From Escherichia coli (lineage in GTDB: Bacteria > Pseudomonadota > Gammaproteobacteria > Enterobacterales > Enterobacteriaceae): a stretch of DNA of 64,000 bases. The translations under genes and the position numbers were made by a program. The notes beneath the pieces are model-generated. The model was not told the origin of the DNA and did no database searches. It was given only the letters and a program-made list of their open reading frames with translations. This document shows, one piece after another, positions 4,210 through 49,895 of the stretch. Position 1 is the stretch's first letter. Every line of letters starts with the position of its first letter. The stretch is from the NCBI RefSeq assembly GCF_029227855.1, contig NZ_CP074356.1. One strand, 5' to 3'.

Positions 4210-5241
4210 ATGTCTGCATTTACCCCGGCAAGTGAAGTCTTGCTGCGTCACAGTGATGATTTCGAACAAAGCCGTATTCTGTTTGCCGGAGACTTACAGG
4301 ATGACCTGCCCGCGCGTTTAGATACCGCGGCCAGCCGTGCTCATACCCAGCAATTCCACCACTGGCAGGTATTAAGCCGCCAGATGGGGGATAACGCCCG
4401 TTTCAGTCTGGTCGCCACGGCGGATGACGTCACAGATTGCGATACGCTGATTTACTACTGGCCGAAGAACAAACCGGAAGCCCAGTTCCAGTTGATGAAT
4501 TTACTTTCTCTGCTGCCGGTGGGCACGGATATTTTTGTCGTTGGCGAGAACCGCAGCGGCGTGCGCAGCGCCGAGCAGATGCTGGCAGATTATGCGCCGT
4601 TGAATAAAGTGGACAGCGCTCGTCGCTGTGGCCTCTATTTTGGTCGTCTGGAAAAACAGCCAGTATTTGATGCCGATAAATTCTGGGGCGAATACAGCGT
4701 CGATGGCCTGACGGTCAAAACGCTGCCGGGCGTGTTTAGCCGCGACGGTCTGGATGTCGGTAGCCAGTTACTGCTCTCGACGTTAACTCCGCACACGAAA
4801 GGTAAAGTGCTGGATGTCGGCTGTGGCGCGGGCGTGCTTTCTGTTGCCTTTGCGCGCCATTCGCCGAAAATTCGTCTCACTCTGTGCGATGTCTCTGCGC
4901 CAGCGGTAGAAGCCAGCCGCGCAACACTTGCGGCCAACGGTGTTGAAGGTGAAGTCTTTGCCAGTAACGTCTTTTCCGAGGTGAAAGGTCGTTTTGATAT
5001 GATCATCTCCAACCCGCCGTTCCACGATGGGATGCAAACCAGCCTCGATGCGGCGCAAATGCTGATTCGCGGCGCGGTGCGTCATCTTAATAGCGGCGGC
5101 GAGCTGCGAATTGTAGCGAACGCCTTCCTGCCTTATCCGGACGTGCTGGATGAGACATTTGGCTTCCACGAAGTGATCGCGCAAACCGGGCGCTTCAAGG
5201 TGTATCGCGCCATTATGACCCGCCAGGCGAAGAAAGGTTAA
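4210..5241 (+). CDS. rsmC: 16S rRNA (guanine1207-N2)-methyltransferase
   Basis: 343 aa, SAM-binding [11 protein letters not shown] and NPPFH motifs; divergent from holD. Confidence 0.9.
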
Positions 5242-5371
5242 GTATCTGATATCTGTCGCCGCATACCGTGTCGGATGCGGCGTACACGACTTCTCTGACC
5301 GACAAACGAATTATCCACAATCCGCTGATGGACATTTTTCCAGCAATTACACCTCCGGCGATAATTAACTA

Positions 5372-5399
5372 TTGACGAAAAGCTGAAAACCACTAGAAT
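5372..5399 (+). promoter_or_regulatory. Sigma70 promoter of the tRNA-Leu operon (TTGACG -35, 16-nt spacer, TAGAAT -10, GC-rich discriminator)
   Basis: ttgacgaaaagctgaaaaccactagaat followed by gcgcctccg about 40 nt upstream of the first tRNA; AT-rich tract upstream. Confidence 0.55.
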
Positions 5400-5440
5400 G
5401 CGCCTCCGTGGTAGCAATTCTTTTTAAGAATTGATGGTAT

Positions 5441-5527
5441 GCGAAGGTGGCGGAATTGGTAGACGCGCTAGCTTCAGGTGTTAGTGTCCTTACGGACGTG
5501 GGGGTTCAAGTCCCCCCCCTCGCACCA
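5441..5527 (+). tRNA. leuV: tRNA-Leu (anticodon CAG), copy 1 of 3
   Basis: 87-nt GCGAAGGTGGCGGAATTGGTAGACGCG...CCTCGCACCA with CTTCAGGT anticodon loop; gene name assigned by operon position only. Confidence 0.9.
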
Positions 5528-5555
5528 AAAACCACGTTGATATTGCTCGCACTGG

Positions 5556-5642
5556 GCGAAGGTGGCGGAATTGGTAGACGCGCTAGCTTCAGGTGTTAGT
5601 GTTCTTACGGACGTGGGGGTTCAAGTCCCCCCCCTCGCACCA
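5556..5642 (+). tRNA. leuP: tRNA-Leu (anticodon CAG), copy 2 of 3, with one C-to-T difference in the variable arm
   Basis: Same 87-nt sequence except GTTCTTACGGAC instead of GTCCTTACGGAC. Confidence 0.9.
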
Positions 5643-5676
5643 AACGAGGCGATATCAAAAAAAGTAAGATGACTGT

Positions 5677-5763
5677 GCGAAGGTGGCGGAATTGGTAGAC
5701 GCGCTAGCTTCAGGTGTTAGTGTCCTTACGGACGTGGGGGTTCAAGTCCCCCCCCTCGCACCA
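5677..5763 (+). tRNA. leuQ: tRNA-Leu (anticodon CAG), copy 3 of 3
   Basis: Identical to copy 1. Confidence 0.9.
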
Positions 5764-5801
5764 ATTATCTTTACTTCCTTTCTTGTTTCTTCCCTGTTTT
5801 A

Positions 5802-6038
5802 TCATCCCTGATTCAAATTCATTAGCATCAGCATGATGCCAGCACTAAGCGCCAGGCACGATGGCAGCAAAACGTAATGCCGCAACTGTTTGTGATACAG
5901 CATCACCGGCGTCAATATTAATCCCATCAGAATGACAATCCGCCACTGATCCGGCGATAAATCCGCATACATCAGCCCTGCAATCAGCAATCCCGGCAGC
6001 AACACTCCCCAGCCACTGCCCAGCGTACGTTGCAACAT
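5802..6038 (-). CDS. yjjZ: Small inner-membrane protein YjjZ
   Basis: ORF 5802..6149; the 78-aa form MLQRTLGSGWGVLLPGLLIAGL... starts at an internal Met; divergent from fhuF. Confidence 0.5.
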   Translation of the reverse strand: MLQRTLGSGWGVLLPGLLIAGLMYADLSPDQWRIVILMGLILTPVMLYHKQLRHYVLLPSCLALSAGIMLMLMNLNQG

Positions 6039-6049
6039 GGTTTCATCTC

Positions 6050-6178
6050 TTTCATTGATAATGATAACTAATATCATATGATAATTTTTATCATTTGCAA
6101 GCCAGAGAAATCCCTTGCTATCGGGTAAACCTATCGCTAGGATTAGCAATCATTATCATTTAGATTACTATCACGATT
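6050..6178. promoter_or_regulatory. yjjZ-fhuF divergent promoter region with Fur-box-like GATAAT/ATCATT repeats
   Basis: tgataatgataactaatatcatatgataatttttatcatttgc and gcaatcattatcatttagattactatcac resemble the Fur consensus GATAATGATAATCATTATC. Confidence 0.4.
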
Positions 6179-6967
6179 ATGGCCTATCGTTCCGCACCGC
6201 TCTATGAAGATGTTATCTGGCGAACGCATCTCCAGCCGCAGGATGCTGGGCTTGCACAAGCCGTACGGGCGACGATCGCCGAACATCGTGAACATTTGCT
6301 CGAGTTTATCCGCCTGGATGAACCCGCTCCGCTTAACGCCATGACGCTGGCGCAATGGTCATCACCGAATACGCTAAGTTCTCTACTGGCGGTCTATTCC
6401 GATCATATCTACCGCAACCAACCCTTGATGATCCGCGAGAACAAACCGCTGATCTCACTATGGGCGCAATGGTATATCGGCCTGATGGTGCCACCATTAA
6501 TGTTGGCGCTGCTGACGCAGGAAAAAGCATTAGATGTGTCGCCGGAACATTTCCACGTTGAGTTTCACGAAACCGGACGCGCCGCCTGTTTCTGGGTCGA
6601 TGTGTGTGAAGATAAAAACGCAACACTACATTCGCCGCAGCAGCGAATGGAAACGTTAATCAGTCAGGCGCTTGTTCCGGTAGTGCAGGCATTAGAAGCA
6701 ACGGGAGAGATCAACGGCAAACTTATCTGGAGCAATACCGGTTATTTGATCAACTGGTATCTGACTGAGATGAAACAGCTGCTCGGCGAGGCGACGGTTG
6801 AATCGCTGCGCCATGCCCTCTTTTTTGAGAAAATGCTCACGAACGGTGAAGATAATCCACTCTGGCGTACCGTGGTACTGCGCGACGGCCTGCTGGTGCG
6901 CCGCACTTGCTGTCAGCGTTATCGCTTACCGGATGTGCAGCAATGTGGCGATTGTACGCTGAAATGA
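6179..6967 (+). CDS. fhuF: Ferric-siderophore reductase FhuF (2Fe-2S protein)
   Basis: 262 aa; C-terminal C-C-x10-C-x2-C motif (CCQRYRLPDVQQCGDC). Confidence 0.9.
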   Translation: MAYRSAPLYEDVIWRTHLQPQDAGLAQAVRATIAEHREHLLEFIRLDEPAPLNAMTLAQWSSPNTLSSLLAVYSDHIYRNQPLMIRENKPLISLWAQWYIGLMVPPLMLALLTQEKALDVSPEHFHVEFHETGRAACFWVDVCEDKNATLHSPQQRMETLISQALVPVVQALEATGEINGKLIWSNTGYLINWYLTEMKQLLGEATVESLRHALFFEKMLTNGEDNPLWRTVVLRDGLLVRRTCCQRYRLPDVQQCGDCTLK

Positions 6968-7004
6968 AAGCACTGCCGGGGAAGTAAACCCGGCATCATG
7001 CGGA

Positions 7005-7682
7005 TTAATAGGGATGCAACACATTACTTGCTTCGCAATGCCGCATACATAACAGAATATCTGCGGCCTCCAACAACCCTGCATCAGAACTGACGCCCAG
7101 TTTCGACATCACATTAAATTTATGTGCACGGATCGTTTTGATATTGCGTTTAAGCTGCTCGGCAATTTGTGTCATTGAGTAGCCACGCGACATAAAGCGC
7201 AATATTTCTCTCTCCGTCGGGCTTAGCGTTCGGCTTTGATTAATGTACCACTGATTGTTCAGTCGGTCGGTCGCCTGACGTACACCATTTAATGACAAAA
7301 AGAGTTCCTGATGAAAAATCTCCAGCGTTGACGCTTTACTTAATACACCGTCCAACGGTGATGGCGACAAAGAACCAATCAGCCGAGCTTCAATATCATC
7401 ATCCGCAATAACTAAACGCCGGGTACGCGGAAACTTAATCGCCAGTTCAGTCAGGCAAGATAATCCCTCTCTGCGCTCACTTCTCATGGCAGAAAAAGAA
7501 AAAATGACCGCCGCAAACGAGATCCGCGACATGGCATCCTGAAATGACTCCTGACTGGTATAGGTATGGAGCTTATAAGGGTTACCCGCAAACTTTCTGA
7601 ATAAACTCTCAATACCGATACTACTCATGACGCATTTTTCTATGAGTGCGACATTTCTCTTCTTAATTCGGCTGTGTTCCAT
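7005..7682 (-). CDS. bglJ: LuxR-family transcriptional activator BglJ
   Basis: 225 aa with C-terminal LuxR-type HTH ([24 protein letters not shown]); overlaps yjjQ. Confidence 0.85.
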
Positions 7683-8365
7683 TCTGCGGCATCTCCATAA
7701 ACAGAAGGCAAGTTAAGTTCTCTTGCACCCTGCGCGCTATTTATCCATGCATACATTTCAGCGTTGCTGTGAATTGCCAGTCGACGCATCGCACTGTTTT
7801 TTTGGGCGCTGATAGTTTTATTACTTTTCTTAAGCAATGAAGCTATCTGGTTGATGCCCCATCCTTTACCTAATAGCCGCAGTACCTTGCGCTCTGAAAG
7901 AGTGAGAATGACGGAGCGATAGCTAAAATCATGAGTTTCAGTCATTGCCGGAGAGGTCAGCATGGCGCTGATACGCTCTGCGTGCGTATTGCCGGAACGT
8001 ACGGTCTTGACCAGATTCTCAATGGGTTCAACATCAGACAATAACGTCGCCGTAGGGCACATGAGCAATTCTACTGCCTGGGAATACCAGGAGCGTGACA
8101 CCATGAAAACCCAGTGAATTTCCCGATATTGCGAGATTAAAGAATAATAATGTTCACAAACAGAACGTGGATCTTCACTTTCACCGGCTAAATCAGCAAT
8201 GACTAATCCGGAACGACGTAATTGTAATAAGGTAAGGTCCTCCGCAGAGGCGCTGGATATTATTTCATATTCAGGGAAGTGAGTCCTCATGACCTCTTTT
8301 AACCCTGCTTGCATAACAGGTATTTTACTGATAACAATTCCATTTTTGCAGCATCCTGGCAACAT
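7640..8365 (-). CDS. yjjQ: LuxR-family regulator YjjQ
   Basis: 241 aa with C-terminal LuxR HTH ([23 protein letters not shown]); upstream of and overlapping bglJ. Confidence 0.85.
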
Positions 8366-8983
8366 ATTTCCTCCACATCCACTGTCTAAAAATCATGATG
8401 GTTTATTCAGGATATTCATTCCTTAAATGTTTCCAGCAAATTAATAGATTAAGCGAATAAATTATCCTTAGCATTCACTTTCATATCAGCATACTCCTGC
8501 TGCACAACAACTCCACTGCATGTGTCAGAAGGTTAGCATCAAATGATAACCTGGTGAAATAGCCTGGAGACATTTAAAATATCTACATTAAGTTGTTAGA
8601 AATACTTAATGAAAAACAGAATTCTCATTCATTTAATTTATAATTAACTGATATCCCTTCCCGCAGAATGCAAAATCACACAATCAATATTTATTCAATA
8701 AAATCTGATAGTTTTAACTTGTAAAAATTAAAAAACGCGCCCAGTTATCTTTTATCCTGATTCGTAAAGGCTAAACAATAAATTCATTATAGTGATAATA
8801 TTCATGTGATAATTTGTTTGCGACGAGAGATAATTCGCTTTTTATCACCGAGCTTCTCCTGATAACCAGGATTAATCAGCGCAATTTTGATCTTAACCTA
8901 CCGCAAAACAACCGTGCTTCATGATACAAATGGATTCTCATTATCTGAACAATACGCAGCACGTCTATGACAAAGGGCGAGTT
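8366..8983. promoter_or_regulatory. AT-rich divergent yjjQ-bglJ / yjjP control region, probably H-NS-silenced
   Basis: About 600 nt of very AT-rich non-coding DNA between divergent genes; H-NS silencing of yjjQ-bglJ is recalled from K-12. Confidence 0.4.
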
Positions 8984-9754
8984 ATGCAAACTGAGCAACA
9001 GCGAGCCGTAACACGGCTTTGTATCCAGTGTGGATTATTTCTTTTGCAACATGGTGCGGAAAGCGCGTTGGTTGATGAGCTTTCCTCACGACTGGGTCGG
9101 GCGTTGGGAATGGACAGCGTCGAAAGTTCTATCTCTTCGAACGCCATAGTGCTGACAACCATCAAAGATGGGCAATGCCTGACATCGACACGAAAAAATC
9201 ACGATCGCGGCATTAATATGCATGTGGTGACTGAAGTCCAGCACATTGTGATTCTGGCGGAGCATCATCTGCTGGATTACAAAGGTGTAGAGAAACGATT
9301 TAGCCAAATTCAGCCATTACGTTACCCGAGATGGCTGGTAGCCTTAATGGTCGGCCTTTCTTGCGCCTGTTTCTGTAAACTCAATAAAGGTGGCTGGGAT
9401 GGTGCCGTCATCACCTTCTTTGCCAGTACGGTCGCGATGTATATCCGCCAGCTGCTGGCACAACGTCATCTTCATCCACAGATCAACTTTTGCCTCACCG
9501 CTTTCGCCGCCACCACCATTTCCGGTTTGCTTTTGCAACTTCCCACTTTCAGCAATACACCCACTATCGCGATGGCCGCCAGCGTTCTGCTGCTGGTGCC
9601 GGGCTTTCCGTTGATTAATGCCGTCGCCGATATGTTTAAAGGCCACATCAATACCGGACTGGCACGCTGGGCGATCGCCAGTCTGCTGACACTGGCTACC
9701 TGCGTCGGCGTAGTGATGGCACTGACGATTTGGGGGCTACGCGGATGGGTGTGA
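8984..9754 (+). CDS. yjjP: ThrE-family exporter subunit YjjP
   Basis: ORF 8921..9754; the 256-aa form starts MQTEQQRAV. Confidence 0.8.
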
Positions 9755-10218
9755 TCGAATTTCTGTTAGCGTTGGCGCAGGATATGATCCTCGCCGCCAT
9801 TCCTGCGGTCGGCTTTGCGATGGTGTTCAACGTTCCCGTGCGGGCGTTACGCTGGTGTGCGCTGCTTGGCTCGATAGGTCATGGTTCCCGAATGATCTTA
9901 ATGACCAGCGGGCTGAATATTGAGTGGTCAACTTTTATGGCTTCTATGCTGGTCGGCACCATTGGTATTCAATGGTCGCGCTGGTATCTGGCGCATCCGA
10001 AAGTGTTTACCGTGGCGGCTGTTATTCCTATGTTCCCTGGCATATCGGCTTATACCGCAATGATTTCGGCGGTAAAAATCAGCCAGCTAGGTTACAGCGA
10101 ACCGTTGATGATTACCCTGTTAACCAACTTTCTTACAGCTTCATCAATTGTTGGTGCGTTATCCATCGGTCTTTCCATTCCTGGATTATGGTTGTACCGC
10201 AAGCGCCCTCGCGTATAA
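9745..10218 (+). CDS. yjjB: ThrE-family exporter subunit YjjB
   Basis: ORF 9730..10218; the 157-aa membrane protein starts [13 protein letters not shown]; overlaps yjjP. Confidence 0.8.
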
Positions 10219-48149: not shown

Positions 48150-48534
48150 CATTCTCCAGCGTCGCACTGCGCCAACCGCCATTATCCCAGACCAGATCAA
48201 ACGTTAGCGATTCATCGTCGTGATACAGCATTATCTCAAGGCTGATCGCCAGAGTGTGGCAGTACGCTTCTTTCAAATTAACCTGCAACGCCGCAATCCG
48301 TGGCTCATGAAATAACAGTGCAGAACGCAGCTGACGGCAATACCAGCTCTGGAGATGTTTGTCGCTCGGGTTATGCACTTGCCACTCGGGCATGCCTGAA
48401 ACAAGTAATGACGGTAATGCCGAATGAGGAGAATTAAAAAGAGTGAGGAGATCGCTGCATACTGATTTACGCAGCGGTGACGTTTTATTGCCTGAAATTT
48501 CAGGTAAAACAGCCTGAAGTGATTGGCGCATCAT
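48142..48534 (-). CDS. iraD: Anti-adaptor protein IraD (stabilises RpoS)
   Basis: ORF 48142..48543; the 130-aa form starts [25 protein letters not shown]. Confidence 0.8.
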
Positions 48535-49316
48535 TTTGCGCACTCCTGACGTTTAGCAACATATGCGGCTTGCCCTGAACACCGGGCACCACTGTATTGA
48601 TGCTCATTTTCCATAGCCATTCCCTTTTGTTCATTACATCCATGTCAGTCTGAGACAGGCCTGAATCCTGTCAGCAAAGTATAAAACCTTACTTGCCTAT
48701 GAATATCTACTGACTTTTCAGGAAAAAAGTCATGATTTGATAAAAATCATCAAACTCAAAAAAAAACCGCTAGTATATTCTGAATATTCCGAATAGTTAC
48801 GTAGATGAAAATACTTGTCACCACCGCTACTTAATTCCGGTGGGAAATTATTTATTTCCGCATAATCAGCTATGTATTATTTAAAACAATTAGTTTGTAA
48901 ATAATATAAATTGATAACATATCAAATACATCAAAAATACCATTCACAGGCATTATTAATATAGACATCAATATAGCAACATCAAATTCCAATTAGTAAT
49001 AAGATATGCTTTTAAATTGCATGCAAATAATTTTAAATGAGCGTTTTTTGATACTTTAGAGTGTTTCCCACCATTTAATATCACTGTGTAGAGTTGATAT
49101 CACTACAACAGAAACATGCATGTCATTTGTTTACTTCTCTTTTTACTACAGAAAAATTTATCTATTTTTCTAAGCATCAGTGAAATACTCATAAAGGTAA
49201 CTATTATGTCTATGCCATTAAGCAATGCCCTTCAGAGTTAAATTATTACAGATAATCACTTCCTTCATCATCCAAAAGTCGACAGTGAGTTAACACGTAA
49301 ACATGAACGTGCACGC

Positions 49317-49895
49317 ATGGATACGGAAAATATCTATCTTCCGCCTCTTGCTCGTGGCAATAACCATAATTACGATGGAAAAAGCGTTGTCGAAATTAGA
49401 AAACTTGATATTAGTAAAGAGTCCTGGCCATTTAATTATGTGACAGAAACATGCAGAGAATTCAATGGTATTACAACAACAGGACGTATGCTCTATCGAA
49501 ACTTGAAAATCACCTCAGCTTTAGACGAAATATATGGTGGTATATGTAAAAAGGCGCATGCTGCCACAGAGTTAGCAAAAGGATTACGGCTAAATTTATT
49601 TATGAAAGGCCCTTTCGATCCTGTTGAGGACTATACAGTTCATGAAATAACATTAGGCCCTGGTTGCAATGTTCCTGGTTATGCCGGAACCACGATAGGA
49701 TATATTTCAACCCTTCCAGCTTCTCAGGCAAAAAGATGGACCAATGAGCAGCCAAGGATTGATATCTATATTGATCAGATAATGACGGTAACAGGGGTAG
49801 CAAATTCTTCCGGATTCGCCCTTGCCGCATTACTTAATGCTAATATTGAGTTGGGTAATGACCCAATAATTGGTATAGAAGCCTATCCCGGGTGA
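49317..49895 (+). CDS. Hypothetical protein in the AT-rich iraD-uxuR interval (the position yjiC occupies in K-12)
   Basis: 192-aa ORF, ATG start with in-frame stop 75 nt upstream; preceded by about 770 nt of very AT-rich DNA; identity not recognised. Confidence 0.45.
   Translation: MDTENIYLPPLARGNNHNYDGKSVVEIRKLDISKESWPFNYVTETCREFNGITTTGRMLYRNLKITSALDEIYGGICKKAHAATELAKGLRLNLFMKGPFDPVEDYTVHEITLGPGCNVPGYAGTTIGYISTLPASQAKRWTNEQPRIDIYIDQIMTVTGVANSSGFALAALLNANIELGNDPIIGIEAYPG

Follow-up and report, generated by a model that had tools for sequence, protein, structure and literature searches.

The locus studied here lies in a stretch of 64,000 nucleotides of the Escherichia coli chromosome (hereafter the window) and consists of two divergent operons, yjjQ-bglJ and yjjPB, together with the spacer that they share. 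Gene coordinates were transferred onto the window from the RefSeq annotations of strain ST2747, which is 100% identical to it, and of K-12, which is 97.6% identical over 8266-9083 (818 bp). The genes and the spacer are the following:

7005-7682, minus strand: bglJ, a LuxR/GerE-type regulator (RefSeq; Pfam GerE, E=1.3e-12)
7640-8365, minus strand: yjjQ, which heads the yjjQ-bglJ operon and encodes a LuxR/GerE-type regulator (RefSeq; Pfam GerE, E=6.6e-8)
8366-8983, no strand: yjjQ/yjjP spacer, 618 bp with 33.2% GC, a divergent regulatory region (RefSeq annotation and composition)
8984-9754, plus strand: yjjP, a ThrE-family membrane protein, putative succinate exporter subunit (RefSeq; Pfam ThrE, E=1.5e-69)
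9745-10218, plus strand: yjjB, second gene of the yjjPB operon (RefSeq; Pfam ThrE_2, E=1e-32)

Since yjjQ ends at 8365 and yjjP starts at 8984, the interval 8366-8983 is exactly the whole intergenic spacer. The first-pass annotation, made from the letters of the sequence, had described divergent yjjQ-bglJ and yjjPB operons with about 600 nt between them, and RefSeq confirms this arrangement with a spacer of 618 bp in both ST2747 and K-12 (in MG1655, yjjP occupies 4602088-4602858 and yjjQ 4603477-4604202). YjjQ is annotated as a transcriptional repressor, and the partner of BglJ is RcsB. The RefSeq product given for YjjPB is a putative succinate exporter, a role credited to Fukui 2017 in a paper that cites it. 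The locus stretch was found in 5424 of 5426 complete E. coli genomes. The spacer of this strain differs from that of K-12 by 20 substitutions over its 618 bp, without any indel, its promoter-proximal flanks being nearly identical. Elsewhere in the window, indel-rich differences from K-12 occur at 4766-4900 and 5200-5400, within the interval from the 3' end of rsmC to the leu-tRNA cluster (154 gap columns), and the end position of rsmC differs between the two annotations.

Within the regulator operon, the 3' end of yjjQ overlaps bglJ over 7640-7682, so that the annotation agrees with the overlap of 43 nt first noticed in the sequence. The start of bglJ on which this overlap depends is sound and conserved across genera: the residues between the first and the second Met of BglJ (…RNVALIEKC…) are kept in every genus examined. 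The overlap measures roughly 30-55 nt in each species compared (43 nt in Escherichia, mostly 40-55 nt elsewhere), and its presence in all 70+ species suggests, from sequence comparison, that translation of the two genes may be coupled. Outside Escherichia, identity is 36-69% for BglJ, 47-74% for YjjQ and 83-91% for YjjP, the two regulators diverging much faster.

The spacer had been singled out for its very low GC content. Indeed, its GC content is 33.2%, compared with 51.0% for the window; among 618-nt windows (mean 51.0%, sd 5.4%), just 0.93% have so little GC, and the spacer thus ranks in the lowest 1%. The yjjQ and bglJ genes themselves have 45% GC versus 51%. The 200-nt minimum of the spacer, 25.5%, is found at 8600-8799, and the most AT-rich part can be delimited as one feature:

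8599-8860, no strand: hypervariable spacer centre, 28.6% GC, the putative core for H-NS nucleation and spreading

This centre evolves fast. It contains 19 of the 20 substitutions that separate the spacer from K-12, which amounts to a divergence of 7.3%, compared with 0-0.4% in the promoter-proximal flanks and 0.4-2.5% in the neighbouring genes. The allele present here is a minority one: at least 99% identity to it is reached in just 30 of 5392 genomes, and 4667 of them (86% of matching complete genomes) are only 90-95% identical. Between genera the centre is not alignable, though the spacer as a whole holds 30-44% GC. The allelic diversity of the centre within E. coli (6-9%) could translate into strain-specific silencing strength. 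As a separate observation, comparably or more AT-rich stretches lie at ~48348-49775 and ~59206-61045 (minimum 28.5% and 34-37%, respectively, in 618-nt windows) and may be further AT-rich islands of the H-NS type.

The age of this organisation was approached through a YjjP scan of one genome per species, which yielded 80 Enterobacteriaceae loci. The yjjQ-bglJ and yjjPB operons are both present and divergent in 75 of them. A direct spacer separates the operons in 52 loci, each from a different species, with a length of 347-709 bp and a GC content of 30-44% compared with 48-56% for the locus. In another 23 loci (Klebsiella, Raoultella, Kluyvera, the C. amalonaticus group and others), 1.8-2.6 kb are inserted between yjjQ and yjjP: the insert is ~2.6 kb long in 22 of them (e.g. 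our loci L008, L024, L043, L048, L070 and L078) and 1.8 kb long in L083. In K. pneumoniae (L060, 2641-4723) it encodes a PobA-like FAD monooxygenase of 394 aa (PF01494) and an AraC-type regulator of 302 aa, the pair found between yjjQ and yjjP in Klebsiella, Raoultella, Kluyvera and the C. amalonaticus group, and what elsewhere is one shared spacer becomes two AT-rich pieces of smaller length. Because the divergent arrangement extends across the Enterobacteriaceae, it must be old rather than an island specific to E. coli.

Most of what is known of the function of the region comes from K-12. There, work from the Schnetz laboratory showed that yjjQ-bglJ is repressed by H-NS and activated by LeuO, H-NS being dominant under laboratory conditions and the operon being kept off (PMC3950696, PMC5025477); the LeuO-activated operon "is also repressed by H-NS" (PMC5025477). 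According to its title, the article of Stratmann, Madhusudan & Schnetz 2008 (J Bacteriol 190:926) reports that yjjP too is regulated by H-NS and LeuO. The U00096.2 coordinates used in the supplements of Myers et al. 2013 (PMC3688515) were converted as window = 4609865 − coordinate, a relation that we derived from IS positions. Aerobically, H-NS ChIP-chip enrichment extends over 4600344-4604525, i.e. window 5340-9521, and covers the whole spacer (PMC3688515 Table S3); anaerobically, it forms two blocks equivalent to window 8650-9396 and 5224-8487 (PMC3688515). The FNR ChIP-chip signal increases from 0.319 in the wild type to 0.662 in Δhns/ΔstpA, a change marked significant, and yjjQ (0.47) and bglJ (0.39) respond to O2 solely in the hns/stpA mutant (PMC3688515). 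A SELEX peak of the RpoD (sigma70) holoenzyme, flagged HNS, also falls in the spacer, with promoters predicted in both directions (Shimada et al., PMC3946193). Regulators documented at the spacer besides H-NS are LeuO, FNR (a ChIP peak) and BasR.

The first-pass annotation had taken yjjQ-bglJ to be silenced by H-NS in K-12, had pointed to H-NS ChIP data as the check, and had expected multiple promoters and nucleoid-protein sites in the region. The silencing is borne out by the repression papers (PMC3950696, PMC5025477) and by the ChIP-chip domain (PMC3688515), whose published enrichment spans the whole spacer (Table S3), and H-NS-independent expression of yjjQ-bglJ is contradicted by the same K-12 repression papers. 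The SELEX peak with promoters both ways and the H-NS ChIP-chip signal, again in K-12, agree with the expectation of multiple promoters and nucleoid-protein sites. A search for the H-NS high-affinity 10-mer TCGATAAATT with at most 2 mismatches gave 3 matches in the spacer, which merely reflect its AT-richness and do not discriminate; the count in the whole window, 77, is barely above that of shuffled sequences (64±7.5).

The low GC content could also be read as a functionless remnant of the horizontal acquisition of yjjQ-bglJ, drifting towards AT and serving no selected role. The 45% GC of the two regulator genes and the very fast evolution of the centre would both fit such an origin. However, the divergent arrangement is found throughout the Enterobacteriaceae and not in E. 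coli alone, and both length and AT-richness are held in 52 species despite the turnover of the sequence. Moreover, published genetics and ChIP show function, and IS insertions in the spacer are positively selected in vivo (see below). We therefore regard a functionless remnant as extremely improbable.

Outside the centre, a consensus scan and the comparison of Escherichia lineages delimited several further elements, on the yjjQ side and within the AT-rich part:

8370-8374, minus strand: Shine-Dalgarno sequence GGAGG of yjjQ, invariant in 53 species
8461-8489, minus strand: predicted yjjQ promoter CTGATA-17-GATAAT (consensus scan; same hexamers from RpoD SELEX, PMC3946193)
8536-8610, no strand: candidate regulator-binding block flanking the centre towards yjjQ; conserved in Escherichia, in part also between genera
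8772-8799, plus strand: promoter-like TAAACA-16-GATAAT, a putative distal yjjP promoter or protein-binding site (consensus scan)

Both hexamers of the predicted yjjQ promoter are invariant in six Escherichia lineages. The promoter-like element at 8772-8799 overlaps a block, 8775-8806, that is conserved within Escherichia, and the sequence ATAAATTCAT recurs in 19 of 48 spacers of other genera. The yjjP promoter predicted from SELEX, ATGAAA-17-TTTAAT, corresponds to window 8609-8637 (PMC3946193) and is poorly conserved. The GATAAT repeats and the neighbouring fhuF gene prompted a scan for Fur boxes, the best spacer matches of which (14/19 at 8927-8945 and 13/19 at 8788-8806) are not conserved and were rejected. 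The same scan found matches of 16/19 and 15/19 at 6057-6098 in the yjjZ/fhuF spacer, which served as its positive control and fit the iron regulation of fhuF.

Such elements raise the question of whether the spacer conceals an unannotated gene, for a small protein or an sRNA, that would explain both its length and its conserved blocks. ORFs of 30-45 aa are indeed present on both strands, the blocks 8536-8610 and 8775-8806 are conserved within Escherichia, and the consensus scan returned 7 promoter-like sites in the spacer where 3.2±1.7 were expected. However, the small ORFs (8481-8573 on the minus strand, 8814-8924 on the plus strand and 8876-8998 on the minus strand) are interrupted by 1-nt indels in other Escherichia. 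The earlier statement that no ORFs are evident is thus right in substance, as no conserved ORF exists, and inexact to the letter, as ORFs of this size do occur. No feature is annotated in the spacer centre among 30 RefSeq genomes sampled, a scan of 7900-9400 produced no match to an Rfam family at E≤1, and a search of the spacer for intrinsic terminators found none. As to a hidden RNA, shuffled sequences fold as well as the putative leader of yjjQ (8366-8565, minus strand; z=-1.13, not significant). The short repeats of the spacer find no support in other species, and the inverted repeat 8423-8436/8564-8577 in particular is not kept by other Escherichia. Taken together, these results make a concealed gene very improbable. 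The two-copy direct repeats of the spacer are probably chance matches.

The best conserved part of the spacer lies on its yjjP side, where two elements form a module:

8887-8900, plus strand: predicted FNR-type site TTGATCTTAACCTA, an 8/10 match to TTGAT-N4-ATCAA with a near-invariant TTGATCT half
8922-8930, plus strand: predicted extended -10 TGaTACAAA of the yjjP-proximal promoter, with an expected start at ~8936-8938

When aligned globally, spacers of different genera do not align reliably over the AT-rich centre, and only alignments anchored on start codons were trusted. In these, the elements that can be aligned between genera are the yjjQ GGAGG (8370-8374), TTGATCT (8887-8893) and TGnTAnAA (8922-8929). 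The succession of TTGATCT, a fixed interval of 31-32 nt and TGnTAnAA is near-invariant, being found in 78 of 79 Enterobacteriaceae loci, and the TG, TA and AA of the extended -10 are each conserved at 95% or more across 53 species; in the Klebsiella group the extended -10 reads GGTAAAAGT instead of TGnTAnAA. The module, with TTGATC followed by T or C, stands ~75-105 nt upstream of yjjP (loci L004 to L083) within otherwise unalignable DNA, and TTGATC is kept at the same position even where pobA-like genes, and not yjjQ, adjoin upstream. A LysR-type (LTTR-like) dyad, CTGAT-N11-ATCAG, is found at 8858-8878, immediately upstream of TTGATCT; of its two arms, the left one lacks conservation beyond E. 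coli. LeuO and other LysR-family regulators use dyads of this T-N11-A type.

The module also bears on the start of yjjP. An older annotation used the in-frame ATG at 8921, giving a protein of 277 aa and a spacer of 555 bp. We rejected this start: the stretch 8936-8970 shows no conservation and is put out of frame by indels in other Escherichia, conserved sequence returns only at 8974-8984, and the ATG at 8921 overlaps the conserved -10. As the stretch 8921-8984 is unconserved and broken by such indels, the 256-aa start at 8984 is the right one. Stratmann and colleagues reportedly described, in 2008, an intergenic region of 555 bp whose centre is bound by H-NS. The figure of 555 bp matches 8366-8920, the spacer under the older yjjP start.

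The site TTGATCTTAACCTA is the only match of the spacer to the FNR consensus with at most 2 mismatches; 53 such matches exist in the 64 kb, and because this corresponds to a chance rate of about 1 per 1.2 kb, a consensus match alone is weak evidence. By-eye comparison of TTGATCT and its flanks with the IHF, sigma54, CRP, NarL and BasR consensus sequences gave no convincing match. It can be argued that anaerobic control of yjjPB is the main logic of the region, exerted in a class II-type manner at TTGATCT by FNR or another protein of the CRP/FNR family, with H-NS as a secondary overlay. The fixed distance between TTGATC and the -10, which holds in 78 of 79 species and does not depend on the gene that lies upstream, speaks for such control, and so do data from K-12. 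An FNR ChIP-seq peak is reported at 4600895/4600950, equivalent to window 8970/8915, with yjjP as the estimated target, a PatSer ln(p) of -7.95 and H-NS and BasR as co-regulators (PMC3688515). The sigma70 ChIP-seq peak at 4600950 (window 8915) rises from 163 aerobically to 907 anaerobically (PMC3688515). In the O2 comparison (aerobic/anaerobic) of the same study, the ratios are 0.49 for yjjP and 0.43 for yjjB; a ratio below 1 denotes higher anaerobic expression, since the internal controls are at 6.6 (acnB), 3.8 (lpdA) and 0.05 (hybO), and the anaerobic induction is therefore ~2-fold. An anaerobic physiology would also suit a succinate exporter. The FNR and sigma70 summits (equivalents 8915-8970) fit the extended -10 promoter and not the SELEX-predicted one at 8609-8637, and the conservation and position of TTGATCT suggest that FNR binding at the yjjP promoter acts through it.

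Other observations weigh against giving FNR the main role. In wild-type K-12, the FNR peak is not accompanied by an FNR-dependent change of expression (PMC3688515 Table S9). The right half of the FNR-type site is weak outside E. coli, only the left half being invariant, and with the -10 at 8925-8930 the centre of the site is predicted at -42.5 to -44.5 (about -43) instead of the class II position of -41.5. Control by FNR would also leave unexplained the ~500 AT-rich bp further upstream and the silencing of yjjQ-bglJ. As an account of the main logic of the spacer, we consider it rather unlikely.

Evolution experiments in the mouse gut provide a further line of evidence. IS insertions hit the spacer in 57% of wild-type mice (PMC4674774), and in the single clone tested the expression of yjjP was up ~2-fold under aerobic conditions (PMC5094792). 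The reported sites are 4600992 for IS1, 4601066 for IS2 and 4601134 for IS5, equivalent to window 8873, 8799 and 8731. All three fall just upstream of the TTGATCT/-10 module, between the centre and the module, as expected if the insertions insulate the yjjP promoter from a silencer. By analogy with the bgl operon, we infer that they probably do so.

From these data we conclude that 8366-8983 is very probably the shared regulatory spacer of yjjQ-bglJ and yjjPB and works as an H-NS silencing platform. The anatomy of the spacer, its conservation and the identity of its allele come from the present analysis, and the functional basis, namely H-NS repression, LeuO activation, occupancy by H-NS, FNR and sigma70, and IS-driven up-regulation, comes from the literature on K-12, from whose centre that of this strain differs by 7.3%. 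According to this model, H-NS would load on the AT-rich, sequence-unconstrained centre (~8599-8860), the likely place of nucleation, which would be constrained in composition and not in sequence. It would then spread or bridge over both flanking promoter regions, so that yjjQ-bglJ would be off and yjjPB damped, and LeuO, a LysR-type H-NS antagonist, would lift the silencing of yjjQ-bglJ. The yjjQ-side flank would contribute the predicted sigma70 promoter and the ribosome-binding site, and the yjjP-side flank the conserved extended -10 promoter with its FNR-type half-site ~43 bp upstream of the predicted start. An IS element that lands between the centre and the yjjP promoter would uncouple the latter from the silencer.

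A more specific extension of the silencing model can be put forward tentatively, as a possibility that falls short of being probable. The module would be the ancestral yjjPB promoter of the Enterobacteriaceae, activated anaerobically by FNR or a protein of the CRP/FNR family, and the adjoining fast-evolving centre would be an H-NS 'dimmer' that holds this promoter down. The IS elements at 8731-8873 would insulate rather than donate a promoter, and the centre alleles could set the strength of silencing.

Three known systems can be compared with this region. The K-12 yjjQ-bglJ/yjjP region is the same locus, with the same flanking genes, a 618-bp spacer in both strains and 97.6% identity over 818 bp; the difference lies in the AT-rich centre, of which this strain has a minority allele with 19 substitutions. 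The bgl operon (PMC9678765, PMC5493358) shares the AT-rich, H-NS-bound DNA flanking a promoter, the LeuO and BglJ-RcsB network, and the raised expression caused by IS1, IS2 or IS5 insertions upstream of the promoter. Unlike bgl, the present locus has one central AT-rich block for two divergent promoters, and the effect of IS on yjjP is modest (~2-fold). Finally, class II FNR sites and FNR sites occluded by H-NS (Myers et al. 2013, PMC3688515) have in common with it a TTGAT-N4-ATCAA-like site ~43 bp upstream of the predicted start and an FNR ChIP signal that is higher in K-12 when hns and stpA are deleted. In contrast to class II sites, only the left half-site is conserved here, the spacing is 1-3 bp off -41.5, and wild-type K-12 shows no FNR-dependent expression.

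The H-NS-silenced control region between yjjQ and yjjP is already known and of textbook standing, and the reading made of it from the sequence was correct. As this biology is established, the present finding mainly confirms the recognition of a known H-NS target; its small refinements are the conserved promoter module of yjjP and the hypervariable spacer centre. Through this region, two silent LuxR-type regulators are linked to a succinate exporter, and selection in the mouse gut has repeatedly favoured up-regulation of this exporter. The module and the centre could guide reporter and mutagenesis work on H-NS silencing combined with anaerobic control.
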